4,244 nt of DNA, taken from IMG/VR virus record IMGVR_UViG_648276659_000008; one strand, 5' to 3'. A program made the translations under genes and the position numbers. Positions within the stretch are counted from its first letter, which is position 1; the number at the start of each line of letters is the position of its first letter. The DNA is from a virus (lineage: Duplodnaviria > Heunggongvirae > Uroviricota > Caudoviricetes). The notes beneath the pieces were generated by a model. The model had not been told where the DNA came from. It saw only the letters and a program-made list of their open reading frames with translations, and made no database searches. Below, one piece after another: positions 2,026 through 4,244 of this stretch.

Positions 2026-2210
2026 TGTGCACATCCTTTTTGTATCGGACGTAAACGGGCCAGCATTGAAAGAATGCATATTTTATTTAATAACTCCCGT
2101 TCGTGTTTTCTCTTGTTAATGGCATCTTCAGTAAATACAGGGTTACTGATAGTGACACCAATTTCAAAACAACCTTCAGACGTATTAACGTTTGGTAATA
2201 ACGTTTCCAT
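2022..2210 (-). CDS. dicB: DicB cell-division inhibitor (62 aa)
   Basis: METLLPNVNTSEGCFEIGVTISNPVFTEDAINKRKHERELLNKICILSMLARLRPIQKGCAQ. Near-identical to my recollection of K-12 DicB over most of its length. GAGGA SD 7 nt upstream of ATG at 2210. Position (~180 nt downstream of dicF, immediately upstream of ydfD) matches the Qin dicB operon. Confidence 0.93.
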   Translation of the reverse strand: METLLPNVNTSEGCFEIGVTISNPVFTEDAINKRKHERELLNKICILSMLARLRPIQKGCAQ

Positions 2211-2227
2211 TATCGCGTCCTCAACAA

Positions 2228-2384
2228 TGAATTTTGTGATGCAGTGCCTGGTGCCTCCAGGTGACGTTAACCAGTTAACAATTAACGCCGGGTTAGTTGA
2301 TGCTCGTTACGCCCGTAAAATACCGCCTTACTGCTTTAACTGTTCCGCGTGCGCATAGCCGCATTCACCGCATCACAAAATTCA
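2228..2384 (-). repeat. 15-bp perfect inverted repeat pair bracketing the dicF-dicB spacer (arms 2228-2242 and 2370-2384)
   Basis: Plus strand 2228-2242 tgaattttgtgatgc is the exact reverse complement of 2370-2384 gcatcacaaaattca. In the minus-strand transcript one arm sits just 3' of the DicF terminator and the other 5 nt upstream of the dicB SD. Confidence 0.7.
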
Positions 2385-2388
2385 CTTT

Positions 2389-2446
2389 AAAAAGGGCGGC
2401 AGAGCAGTCACGGAGTAAAACTGATACCGCCAAATGTCACCAGAAA
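2389..2446 (-). ncRNA. dicF: DicF small regulatory RNA (53-nt body 2394-2446 plus U-tract to 2389)
   Basis: Minus-strand sequence UUUCUGGUGACAUUUGGCGGUAUCAGUUUUACUCCGUGACUGCUCUGCCGCCC followed by UUUUU matches the DicF sRNA as I recall it, with GGCGG...GCCGCC terminator-like pairing. Sits between ydfC-like and dicB as in Qin. Confidence 0.9.
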
Positions 2447-2781
2447 ATTGATAACAGAGGGCGTTGTAGCGGGGTTGTCACTTAAGCGTATGGTCAACCT
2501 GACAACCCGGTGCATTTTCTGGAGCAATGGAGGAAACCCCAGCCATACTTACCGCCGCGCCATTTCGCGGAGTGCCACAACCGGAAGCGCACGGTCGAAC
2601 TAAATTTAACGACACCGTACAGAGAGACCAATTTCGCCGTGCGCTTTCGCGTTATGCCCTGACTTTTCAGGGACATATCCTTTCAGTAAACTGTCAGTGC
2701 CGGATGCTCACCCGTGTCCGGCGCACGCACTCCACCTGACCAGTGGAGAACTCCTTAATTACCAACCCTCAGGAGGGTGAA

Positions 2782-3060
2782 ATGGATAAAAAGCAAATTG
2801 AGGCCCTGCAATCTATTATTGAAGAACAAGATGAAGCTATCAGGATTCTTTCATATCGCACTGATATGATACTAAATATGCTTTCTGCATTAACGGCTGC
2901 GCTTGGTGGTACAAAAACAAACGTATACCGCGAAGTTGTTATTCAACAGATAGATAAATTTGAAAAAACCATACCAGGTATTAATGCTCATCTTGCAGAA
3001 CAAGAGAAAGACCATGCTCTTATGGCAATTTCTTCAGTAGCTCTCCCGAAAGTTGAGTAG
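2782..3060 (+). CDS. Hypothetical acidic 92-aa protein, antisense to the operon; AT-rich moron-like gene
   Basis: ATG at 2782 preceded by perfect AGGAGG SD (2771-2776, 5-nt spacer). Open frame of 92 codons in AT-rich DNA (about 37% GC by manual count, against roughly 43-55% in sampled flanking segments). MDKKQIEALQSIIEEQDEAIRILSYRTDMILNMLSALTAALGG... is predicted helical with one short hydrophobic stretch. I recognise no family. Confidence 0.6.
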   Translation: MDKKQIEALQSIIEEQDEAIRILSYRTDMILNMLSALTAALGGTKTNVYREVVIQQIDKFEKTIPGINAHLAEQEKDHALMAISSVALPKVE

Positions 3061-3421
3061 TTTTAATTGTTGTTTTGAAATAATCACTGCTTTCACATTT
3101 GAGTGATTTCATGGCAATCCAAATGCGGGCCTCTGTGCCTGCATTTGGTTCCAGTTGCTGTAGACGTTTTGCGTCTTCCAAAAGTAAGGCGATAATGTGT
3201 TTCAGCTTCTCATCATTTGCTTGATTCTTGTTTTCAGGCGAATTCTGTCCGCCGAATAGGCGCTTCTCTTCATACAGACCTATAAAGGCACGACGCACGT
3301 TACCGGATATAGTATCGATGGTTTCCTTTTCTACAGTACTCAGGTCAAGAGTCGCCAGTTGAGAGCGAACCACATTCGCTGCCATTTCCTGGAATGGCAT
3401 TGGTAAATCTTTAAATTCCAT
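3020..3421 (-). CDS. Hypothetical 133-aa protein in operon orientation; its 3' end overlaps the convergent plus-strand gene by 41 bp
   Basis: ATG at 3421 with GAGG SD 7 nt upstream; 22 nt downstream of the ydfC-like stop. MEFKDLPMPFQEMAANVVRSQLATLDLSTVEKETIDTISGNVRRAF..., soluble and helical-looking, no family recognised. The last ~100 nt (3020-3120) are much more AT-rich than the rest of the gene. Confidence 0.7.
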   Translation of the reverse strand: MEFKDLPMPFQEMAANVVRSQLATLDLSTVEKETIDTISGNVRRAFIGLYEEKRLFGGQNSPENKNQANDEKLKHIIALLLEDAKRLQQLEPNAGTEARIWIAMKSLKCESSDYFKTTIKTTQLSGELLKKLP

Positions 3422-3443
3422 TATTAGCCTCGTTGGTTAGCTA

Positions 3444-3662
3444 TTAACGTGGGTATGTAACCATTCTGGCAATGCTTAATGCCGCTGCTTTTTCCAGCCT
3501 GGTGATATCCTGCTCCAGAGCGGACAGATTTTCAGCCTGCTTAGTCCTGGCTTCATTGGCCCATTTCAGATCCTGCACTGCATTAATTTTCTGGCGCATC
3601 CACTCATAAAGTTCATCATCGGTATAGTCTGGCGCGATGATGACGGGTTCTCGTTTCTGCAT
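3444..3662 (-). CDS. ydfC: YdfC-like prophage protein (72 aa)
   Basis: MQKREPVIIAPDYTDDELYEWMRQKINAVQDLKWANEARTKQAENLSALEQDITRLEKAAALSIARMVTYPR. GAGGA SD 8 nt upstream of ATG at 3662. Size and position (third gene of operon) match Qin ydfC; sequence identity is a vague recollection only. Confidence 0.8.
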   Translation of the reverse strand: MQKREPVIIAPDYTDDELYEWMRQKINAVQDLKWANEARTKQAENLSALEQDITRLEKAAALSIARMVTYPR

Positions 3663-4174: not shown

Positions 4175-4210
4175 AAAAAAACCCGCCAAAAAGGCGGGTT
4201 TTTTTTTTTT
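4175..4210. terminator. Bidirectional rho-independent terminator (A7 - CCCGCC aaaaa GGCGGG - T12)
   Basis: Perfect 6-bp GC stem with 5-nt loop, flanked by an A-run on one side and a T-run on the other, so it works as an intrinsic terminator on either strand. On the minus strand it would end transcription coming from a gene beyond the window end (expected immunity repressor, dicA-like). Confidence 0.8.
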
Positions 4211-4244
4211 GGGTGGGGGGGGGGGGGGGGGGGGGGGGGGGGGG
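4211..4244. other. Terminal poly-G homopolymer (gggt then G30); probable sequencing or assembly artefact at a contig end
   Basis: Uninterrupted G run at the extreme 3' end of the window directly after a T12 homopolymer, typical of two-colour chemistry poly-G read tails or a homopolymer-induced contig break. Confidence 0.6.

Follow-up and report, generated by a model that had tools for sequence, protein, structure and literature searches.

The convergent gene pair between ydfC and dicF is one allele of a polymorphic antisense cassette in the early operon of Escherichia coli prophages

Introduction

Through the regulators DicF and DicB, cryptic prophages bear on cell division, metabolism and virulence, and on resistance to phages. 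What, then, is the DNA that in some prophages separates the ydfABC genes from dicF, and does it hold a system of its own? The question is raised by a 4,244-nucleotide stretch of a tailed-phage genome (IMG/VR record IMGVR_UViG_648276659_000008; hereafter the window), which is a dicBF-type early-left operon of an Escherichia coli lambdoid prophage, with the operon on the minus strand. Between ydfC and dicF it carries two small open reading frames (ORFs), ORF92 on the plus strand and ORF133 on the minus strand, which a first-pass annotation had described as a convergent pair with overlapping 3′ ends and had proposed as a candidate accessory system of the superinfection-exclusion, toxin-antitoxin (TA) or anti-defense kind. 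Comparison of this locus with its relatives indicates that the pair is one of several interchangeable occupants of a fixed site, and that the unit conserved within it is not the pair.

Results

The Block Is One Allele of an Optional Cassette

Loci from IMG/VR, GenBank phages and complete genomes were compared (locus numbers with the prefix L refer to these), and a census was taken over 5,426 complete E. coli genomes. Alignment with the Qin prophage of K-12 gave exact insertion limits: the block is a 656-bp indel whose ends lie just outside the two start codons, 14 nt ahead of the ATG of ORF92 and 2 nt ahead of that of ORF133 (Table 1). The distance between ydfC and dicF, put at about 1 kb in the first-pass annotation, measures 998 nt in the window; the K-12 distance had been given there as tens of nucleotides and is actually 340 nt. 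That the block is accessory and insertion-like, and that it fills a variable position within an early operon of the prophage, was borne out, and its boundaries are sharp. No direct repeats or target-site duplication flank the indel, and transposition was therefore rejected as the origin of the block.

Between ydfC (or ydfA) on one side and the DicF leader on the other, a prophage has either no insert or one of several cassettes. An empty, K-12-type junction is the majority state (2,718 genomes, ~50%). The window's allele, type A, consists of ORF133 and ORF92 and was found in 127 genomes, with 121 of the 127 copies at least 99% identical; the lysogens 118UI, VR50, BEN2908 and ML35 are examples. 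Type A′ (48 genomes) joins ORF133, at ~89% identity, to an unrelated, non-overlapping antisense ORF of 61 aa. Type B (198 genomes) encodes a sense protein of 106-109 aa, in which the N-terminal 55 residues are common to ORF133 and the C-terminal half is different, and a 91-aa antisense protein; the two genes overlap by 23-32 bp. Type C (650 genomes, O157:H7 included; also PPompW prophages and phage Evi) encodes a 135-aa sense protein with the same N-domain and an unrelated 77-aa antisense protein, with an overlap of 23 bp. The first-pass annotation had allowed that its two ORFs might turn out to be common members of dicB operons with annotated functions; all cassette genes are in fact annotated "hypothetical protein," and half of the genomes do without any of them.

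What is exchanged between types is a hypervariable core (Table 1). The antisense genes of types A, B and C begin at a common ribosome-binding site (RBS) and ATG, whose upstream context, GGAGAACTCCTTAATTACCAACCCTCAGGAGGGTGAA(A)TG, is near-identical in the three types, and divergence sets in from the first base past the ATG. On the far side of the slot, homology returns at ~codon 54 of the sense gene, with DNA breakpoints at window positions 3261/3262 and 3270/3271. The block is thus the type-A allele of an accessory cassette that is both optional and polymorphic. The cassette occupies a fixed slot of the early-left (dicBF, pL-like) operon, after the ydfABC genes and before the DicF leader, in lambdoid and other enterobacterial prophages.

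Five of the 56 type-A loci from IMG/VR (L046, L056-L059) have an ORF92 that is frameshifted after codon 23, beside an intact ORF133. The same five loci are without ydfB and ydfC, so that ORF133 directly follows ydfA with an ATGA overlap, and they offer an alternative upstream ORF133 start (MRLTMEF...).

Both ORFs Are Genes Under Purifying Selection

Coordinates, strands, lengths and the 41-bp overlap of the two ORFs are as first described (Table 1), and the claim of good Shine-Dalgarno sequences likewise holds for both, with a GAGG placed 6 nt ahead of the ORF133 ATG and a full AGGAGG ahead of ORF92. ORF92 was correctly called AT-rich, with a GC content of 0.37 against 0.48-0.54 in the flanks; low GC content is typical of morons. 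Compared with the Salmonella copy L088, the part of ORF92 outside the overlap has pN 0.17 and pS 0.51 (omega 0.23, the lowest among the six frames), and the C-terminal half of ORF133 has pN 0.24 and pS 0.87; omega for ORF133 against the 89%-identical A′ allele is 0.20. Both ORFs are therefore real genes, each evolving as coding sequence under purifying selection (dN/dS ~0.2).

Positions 2700-3500 are 100% identical, among the matches listed, in the ompW-integrated prophage of strain 118UI and in 15 other complete genomes. Both genes have RefSeq entries (Table 1), and a literature search with the two accessions returned no paper; they are catalogued hypothetical proteins and not an unseen system.

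The Conserved Unit Is ORF92 and a Tail Encoded on Its Opposite Strand

Co-occurrence of the pair across E. coli genomes, anticipated in the first-pass annotation, was found: ORF92 is present in 127 genomes and the C-terminal half of ORF133, at no less than 99% identity, in 125. Convergence of an ORF92 homologue with the early gene upstream recurs in four further lineages, with overlapping coding sequences in three; the lineages are Salmonella Rac/Gifsy-like prophages (L088-90), P2/186-like elements (L085-87, L104) and a locus next to a cI-S24 repressor (L103). The overlap is exactly 41 bp in type A and in L085-90, and 44 bp in L104; its length of 41 bp is identical in three alleles (A, L088, L085) whose ORF92 homologues are 45-72% identical to that of the window. 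The upstream partners are otherwise unrelated, being a 71-aa YmfJ-like protein, a 171/191-aa HTH_3 protein, a 140-aa protein, the type-B protein of 106-109 aa and one uncalled ORF. The 171-aa Salmonella partner was considered as a 186 CII-like activator and rejected, as its similarity is only the generic HTH_3 similarity to cI/DicA-type repressors.

The same motif terminates all of these upstream partners (Table 1), with the consensus DY-K--I-TT-LS-ELL over ~20 aa. In the window the last 13 codons of ORF133 are dual-coded with the ORF92 C-terminus, and the motif reaches ~8 codons farther than this shared DNA. Even L103, where the remote family member P0163 is encoded, retains 89% identity over the 35 nt that surround the ORF92 stop codon (3034-3068). 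In distant lineages the neighbor of the ORF92-like gene is a Cox/integrase module, a cI-S24 repressor or an integrase, and the gene invariably runs opposite to the adjoining early genes; in L105 and L106 it is found alone next to an integrase.

As judged by these alignments, the conserved unit is ORF92 together with a ~20-aa tail that is encoded on the strand opposite to it and ends the early gene upstream, whatever that gene may be. A reading as one indivisible two-gene system does not survive, since ORF92 and the last ~20 residues of the upstream gene are all that is conserved; because ORF92 homologues occur with unrelated partners and, in L105/L106, alone, the two-gene label is replaced by the description of ORF92, on the same alignments, as an antisense gene that is autonomous but has its 3′ end inside a neighboring early gene, to which it supplies the C-terminus (DYFKTTIKTTQLSGELL...).

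ORF133 Is a Three-Module Chimera

ORF133 belongs to PHROG 1363, and its N-terminal and C-terminal halves match separate PHROGs. The alignments divide it into an N-domain, a YmfJ-like motif and the tail (Table 1); it is a chimera of these three modules. Across types A, A′ and B and the PPompW form of type C the N-domain keeps 78-96% conservation, against ~50% in the Evi copy of type C. Small free-standing proteins also consist of this domain, among them PHROG 9419 and a 52-aa phage phi191 protein, the latter being the sole fold match of the N-domain. Residues 69-108 of ORF133 are 75% identical to residues 2-41 of the K-12 e14 protein YmfJ over 40 aa (E 3e-20). The match is limited to this motif of 40 residues, with YmfJ residues 42-102 and the remainder of ORF133 not aligning. 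The statement that neither protein resembles a recognized family accordingly fails for this part of ORF133 and stands elsewhere, where only PHROG families of unknown function were found. The YmfJ-like module is also free-standing, as a 71-aa gene in Salmonella (62% identity) and a 67-aa ORF in L070.

ORF133 appears to have been fused from two once-separate small genes, one of ~52-64 aa for the N-domain and one of ~70 aa that resembles ymfJ. Residues 56-68, a low-complexity linker, would derive from the DNA that once lay between them, and the loci that bear on this fusion are window 3020-3421, L070 3043-3246 and L088 4242-4457. A relationship between the C-terminal halves of ORF133 and of the type-B protein beyond the tail was rejected, as BLASTP gave no alignment and only the short tail motif is common to the two by inspection.

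ORF92 Defines a Small Family of Soluble Proteins

ORF92 is acidic (pI 5.1) and soluble, without a transmembrane segment (19-residue Kyte-Doolittle maximum 0.93), and falls in PHROG 18692, for which no function is annotated. Its family is tiny, with 40 clusters among 5.8e9 proteins, those with a named source being from E. coli or Salmonella; a profile search gave 21 matches among 1.84e9 representatives, all unannotated and of ~90 aa. All relatives with a named source or context are enterobacterial, and members are acidic proteins of ~90 aa with three predicted helices and no membrane-spanning hydrophobic segment, with length and motifs kept down to the remote members of the profile search. The family is thus a newly delineated group of ~90-aa soluble proteins. 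Salmonella alleles are 45-81% identical to the window's ORF92, and the type-B antisense protein is a distant true homologue (28% identity over 86 residues, E 1e-5). Three other antisense proteins are unrelated: the 61-aa protein of type A′, the 77-aa protein of type C and e14 YmfI. The last two were tried as remote relatives and rejected, YmfI with BLASTP E 1.3 and an hhalign probability of 0.1.

AlphaFold2 (AF2) models are all-helical for ORF133 (predicted local distance difference test score, pLDDT, 61, with the N-domain at 76-85) and three-helical for ORF92 (pLDDT 68), a moderate confidence at which fold matches are not expected to be decisive. Pfam, NCBIfam, PADLOC, PDB sequence-profile and BFVD fold searches gave no informative match for either protein. 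Matches to PADLOC-DB v2 defense models were at chance level (E 0.025-0.06, ~10 bits), and the best NCBIfam match of ORF92, which is RelB-like, was below threshold (E 0.014, 15.6 bits against a 50-bit cut-off).

The DicF Leader and a Candidate ORF92 Promoter

Between the slot and dicF, a small RNA (sRNA) gene, lies a structured leader of ~320 nt (Table 1) that is more conserved than the adjoining genes and is found in Escherichia and Salmonella; a 28-nt core of it also occurs in Citrobacter contigs, and the leader persists next to different sRNAs. Hairpin 2 carries compensatory changes (CTCCAC/GTGGAG, CCCGAC/GTCGGG, CCCAAC/GTTGGG). The 5′ end of the 190-nt DicF species is made by RNase III (PMC10448788) and maps, by coordinate transfer, to ~2584, within the long helix; the leader is therefore at least a DicF precursor leader on the sense strand. 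RNAalifold energies for the two strands compare at -64.7 and -62.9, an excess of G-U pairs on the plus strand (G-U against A-C counts) comes mostly from two invariant pairs, and the hairpin-2 variant of L088 favors the minus strand. In sequence and structure the element looks like a conserved processing leader of an sRNA precursor and could merit an RNA family of its own; Rfam holds none for it, and copies are present in L002 (4063-4382), L085-L088 and L092-L100.

Upstream of ORF92, a weak candidate promoter read by eye (Table 1) would start transcription at hairpin 1, and the Salmonella copies have aligned -10-like sequences, TGnTAAGCT and TGnTATGCC. The leader also contains a 70-aa ORF (window 2527-2739, plus strand) in frame with ORF92. 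L070 has it joined to ORF92, and in L060 and L061 a frameshift breaks it, so that it is probably non-coding.

Two further observations concern copies of the leader elsewhere. In the Salmonella P2/186-like loci L085 (3590-3700), L086 and L087 a different terminator-bearing sequence (...ATTGCTGTGTGTAGTTGGTTATATTGGCGGGAATGGAATCCCGTACTTTTTC, operon strand) stands at the dicF position downstream of the leader and may be a DicF-position sRNA with a different seed. The exact 28-nt core is also present in metagenome-assembled genomes assigned to Veillonella parvula (L096) and Collinsella (L099), the latter with a near-full-length copy of ~321 nt as well; these contigs are most likely mis-binned enterobacterial prophage DNA.

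Layout of the Window

The features of the window are collected in Table 1. The ydfC stop codon lies 22 nt ahead of the ORF133 ATG, and dicF is downstream of ORF133 in the same operon. Upstream of ydfA, positions 4176-4212 form a symmetrical A-tract, GC stem and T-tract (AAAAAAACCCGCC-AAAAA-GGCGGGTTTTTTTTTTTT) that looks, from its sequence, like a bidirectional intrinsic terminator between the repressor gene and the early-left operon, and sub-threshold Rfam matches there (STnc370 and others) are due to this element. The adjoining 4200-4244 consists of a T run followed by ~35 G, and the last 45 bases are a poly-G read or assembly artifact at the contig end. The spacer between dicF and dicB (2178-2396, minus strand) has a sub-threshold Rfam match to STnc100 (31 bits against a threshold of 47) and a conserved CACCNGGAGGCACCNGGCAC hairpin.

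Table 1. Features of the cassette slot and of the surrounding early-left operon, with the tail motif in the window and at related loci.
Feature	Window position	Strand	Remarks
Indel relative to K-12 Qin	2768-3423		Exact; blastn breakpoints, window aligns on both sides
Hypervariable core, swapped between types	2785-3261		First codon after ORF92 ATG to ~codon 54 of ORF133; DNA comparison with type B (L071, L077) and type C (L003)
Common RBS (AGGAGG) and ATG	2771-2784	+	Antisense genes of types A, B and C
RBS AGGAGG of ORF92	2771-2776	+	5 nt ahead of ATG
ORF92	2782-3060	+	92 aa; ORF list; RefSeq coding sequence WP_000358769.1, "hypothetical protein"
ORF133	3020-3421	-	133 aa; ORF list; RefSeq coding sequence WP_000394529.1, "hypothetical protein"
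Convergent 3′ overlap of ORF92 and ORF133	3020-3060	both	Both strands coding; 41 bp
ORF133 N-domain	3257-3421	-	Residues 1-55, MEFKDLP...VRRAFIGLY; alignment, tblastn, DNA breakpoints
YmfJ-like motif of ORF133	3098-3217	-	Residues 69-108, LKHIIALLLEDAKRLQQLEPNAGTEARI...
ORF133 C-terminal tail	3023-3097	-	Residues 109-133, ...DYFKTTIKTTQLSGELLKKLP; accompanies ORF92
Tail motif, type A			DYFKTTIKTTQLSGELLKKLP
Tail motif, L085			NDYLKCEIKPSRISEELLIQCN
Tail motif, L104			NIYKSKIETTLLTHALLKGAQR
Tail motif, L103			LDYLTGEIETTQISGELL
Tail motif, type B			ENYFATKSINSFDSKQEN
DicF precursor leader, slot to dicF	2446-2767	-	Structured, non-coding, conserved; plus strand would be the ORF92 5′ region
Leader hairpin 1	2699-2722
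Leader hairpin 2	2730-2748
Leader long helix	2581-2598/2634-2650
Weak candidate ORF92 promoter	2664-2692	+	-35 TTTTCA, 17-nt spacer, -10 TAAACT; 8 of 12 matches, by eye
ydfA (DUF1391)	3977-3822	-	Gene assignment
ydfB	3862-3692	-	Gene assignment
ydfC	3662-3444	-	PHROG 1744; upstream operon gene
dicF sRNA	2445-2394	-	Rfam RF00039, full length 1-52, 77 bits against a threshold of 48, E 1.9e-16
dicB	2210-2022	-	Gene assignment
ydfD/DUF1482		-	Next after dicB in operon order
Large exonuclease, N-terminal part	1741-2	-	Gene assignment

Discussion

A Possible Role for the Antisense Gene

The locus presents two real genes in a cassette of defined boundaries, with alleles, a homology unit of its own, synteny with sieB and no TA or defense signatures. 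From these observations we infer a promoter, a timing of expression, an antisense switch and a biological role for ORF92, in a picture that we hold tentatively, as plausible though somewhat short of probable: ORF92 would be a lysogen-expressed accessory gene in the sieB position, under antisense control of the kind seen in excludons or in the sas system. In the lysogen, with the early operon shut by a DicA-type repressor, a weak promoter of its own, situated in the conserved leader, would drive ORF92, and the product would be a soluble accessory factor that most likely would act in phage exclusion or defense or else would control the early protein that bears the tail. Upon induction, or infection by a related phage, a strong early-left transcript would traverse the entire ORF92. 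The antisense relation of the transcripts pointed out in the first-pass annotation follows from this geometry, because the operon RNA must cross ORF92 to reach dicF and dicB; it would be a full-length antisense RNA that, by transcriptional interference and RNase III, would switch ORF92 off while ORF133 is made. The logic would be that of the e14 ymfI-ymfJ excludon and of the sieB/sas/Esc circuit of P22, and a role in exclusion, defense or control of the tail-bearing protein is favored by position and allelic diversity.

Several results weigh against this picture. In a consensus scan for sigma-70 promoters and terminators, no plus-strand promoter came up ahead of ORF92, nor any terminator between the two genes, and processing of DicF on the minus strand accounts for the leader hairpins at least as well. 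ORF92 is dispensable, because it is frameshifted in 5 of 56 type-A loci and half of the genomes have no cassette. A tblastn search of 50,697 deposited phage genomes found no copy of ORF92, and Pfam, NCBIfam, PADLOC, PDB and BFVD searches gave it no relationship. It is position that points to an exclusion or defense role, because ORF92 and its allelic partners lack a membrane segment and resemble neither SieB nor any entry of PADLOC, Pfam, NCBIfam, PDB or BFVD. Of the superinfection-exclusion or defense function first suggested, what stands is thus a location analogous to that of sieB; similarity of sequence, fold or membrane segment was not found.

Both proteins could instead be early-lytic products for host takeover or anti-defense, like Ral, Gam, Kil and cIII of the lambda pL region, with ORF92 transcribed only in lytic growth, for example by read-through, and the overlap a packing accident. 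Their location among host-directed early genes (dicF, dicB, ydfD and the exonuclease) and an allelic diversity typical of arms-race genes fit this account, as does the lack of a convincing ORF92 promoter. We consider it unlikely: simultaneous high expression of both strands is not to be expected of a gene antisense within a long early operon, the antisense orientation with its RBS and ATG is kept across unrelated alleles and the 41-bp overlap in three divergent ones, and sieB (in Rac and lambda) and ymfI (in e14) hold the same antisense position.

A mainly cis-regulatory cassette, in which antisense transcription damps leaky read-through into dicF and dicB in the lysogen or tunes RNase III processing of DicF and the peptides are secondary, would explain why a single antisense position, directly upstream of the DicF leader with its RNase III site at ~2584, is taken by coding sequences that have no relation to one another (types A/B, C and A′), in an operon that is toxic and under layered control (PMC10448788). 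Against it stand the clear purifying selection on ORF92 at the protein level (omega 0.23), with family length and motifs kept, and the half of the genomes that manage dicBF without a cassette; we doubt that regulation in cis is the main purpose.

Quite improbable, in our estimation, is that ORF92 and the tail form an inseparable pair of binder and tag, in which ORF92 made in the lysogen would recognize the tail and sequester, stabilize or degrade the protein that carries it. Any early gene gaining the cassette would then be fused to the tail, giving a portable post-translational switch or a device for self/non-self exclusion of related phages, and divergent alleles (A, B and Salmonella) would be different specificities.

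The TA module of the first-pass annotation, in which one protein is toxic and the other neutralizes it and the overlap gives antisense (type I/III-like) or protein (type II-like) control, has on its side small, paired, tightly linked genes in a mobile element, their co-occurrence in 127 and 125 E. coli genomes, and the weak RelB-like match of ORF92. It is nonetheless very unlikely: the genes are convergent across the 41-bp overlap and not a co-transcribed, autoregulated bicistron, ORF133 sits in a repressed early operon and is intact beside a frameshifted ORF92 (L046, L056-59) or the unrelated 61-aa ORF of type A′, ORF92 homologues accompany different upstream proteins that have only the ~20-aa tail in common or stand alone beside an integrase, and no toxin or antitoxin profile in Pfam, NCBIfam or PADLOC was matched at threshold. 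That the block is a decaying relic, mosaic debris of a recombination hot spot with no current function, is suggested by the frameshifted ORF92 copies, the fusion-like make-up of ORF133, the absence of ORF92 from deposited phage genomes and the many cryptic host prophages, and is scarcely to be credited in the face of dN/dS ~0.2 for both genes between E. coli and Salmonella, the near-identity (at least 99%) of 121 of 127 genome copies and the conservation of the overlap as dual-coding sequence.

Significance

About 1,000 of the 5,426 genomes, O157:H7 among them, carry a cassette in the DicF/DicB operon. What is new here is its anatomy: an optional slot with fixed boundaries, a common start site for interchangeable antisense genes, a small protein family and a dual-coded tail. 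If the lysogen-expressed, antisense-controlled picture of ORF92 is true, the slot would be an alignable hot spot with fixed boundaries and a source of lysogen-side genes to try for exclusion or defense, comparable to the sieB position; with the ORF92 family there would be a further class of soluble effectors, of ~90 aa; the dual-coded tail would be an unusual link between an antisense gene and the protein product of the opposite strand; and antisense transcription adjacent to the RNase III-processed DicF leader could modulate DicF/DicB output, which would be relevant to work on these regulators in strains other than K-12. Exclusion or recognition of the tail, if shown, would sharply raise the importance of the cassette. 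Even if the inference fails, the analysis removes a TA or defense annotation that sequence context alone might invite.

Comparison With Known Systems

Classical morons carry their own promoter and terminator, and genes of this kind are the first point of comparison. The cassette resembles them (e.g., STMMW_20121 of ST64B; PMC7067206) in being AT-rich, optional, allelic, opposed to the lytic operon and bounded by sharp recombination junctions, and genes antisense to lytic operons are typical accessory loci (PMC7067206). It differs from them in that no promoter or terminator is recognizable within it and in that ORF92 shares sequence with its neighbor on the opposite strand.

In architecture ORF92/ORF133 is like the e14 pair ymfI (plus strand) and ymfJ (minus strand), which are convergent with a 63-bp 3′ overlap in the early-left region downstream of the repressor. 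The ymfI-ymfJ pair is listed as a convergent excludon from RNA-seq (PMC12288877), and ymfJ is induced late in the SOS response, with YmfJ protein detected (PMC11002266). Excludons are convergent or divergent genes whose overlapping transcripts shut out one another's expression. The window offers the sequence side of a candidate excludon, namely coding sequences that converge and overlap by 41 bp and an early transcript predicted to run antisense through the whole of ORF92, in an operon on which RNase III is known to act (PMC10448788). The two loci are distinct in content: YmfI is unrelated to ORF92, YmfJ has neither the ORF133 N-domain nor the tail linked to ORF92, and the products of ymfI and ymfJ are themselves uncharacterized.

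The closest likeness in position is to sieB. In Rac the order is racR, ydaG, ydaF (DUF1391, like ydfA), sieB on the opposite strand, the sRNA gene kilS and kilR, with a 4-bp overlap between sieB and ydaF; in lambda, sieB on the plus strand abuts the end of N on the minus strand. ORF92 is likewise antisense, convergent on an upstream early gene and located upstream of an sRNA and a division inhibitor (DicF/dicB; kilS/kilR in Rac), and by the Rac and lambda annotations it has the genomic position of the SieB family. In P22 the early-left transcript yields the sas antisense RNA, which switches translation of sieB from SieB to the inhibitor Esc (PMC12197685, PMC7067206). As to homology, a Pfam scan of ORF92 gave no family and profile searches gave only ~90-aa unannotated proteins. 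SieB is a basic membrane protein of 162-192 aa (Kyte-Doolittle maximum 2.19 in Rac), in contrast to the acidic, soluble, helical 92-aa ORF92 (0.93), and the dual-coded tail and allelic series are features of the window cassette not described for sieB. ORF92 departs from the SieB family both in sequence and in its lack of hydrophobic segments; the resemblances to sieB and to ymfI-ymfJ are functional analogies, not family memberships, with ORF133 related to YmfJ through a shared module and not over the full length. Homology between the regions upstream of Rac sieB and of ORF92 was considered and rejected, apart from sRNA and terminator. The kilS gene of K-12 Rac (L101, 3906-4003), between sieB and kilR, has the relative position of DicF between the slot and dicB, and comparison of Rac with the window suggests a conserved layout of antisense gene, sRNA and division inhibitor in early-left operons, in which the cassette slot corresponds topologically to sieB of Rac and of lambda.

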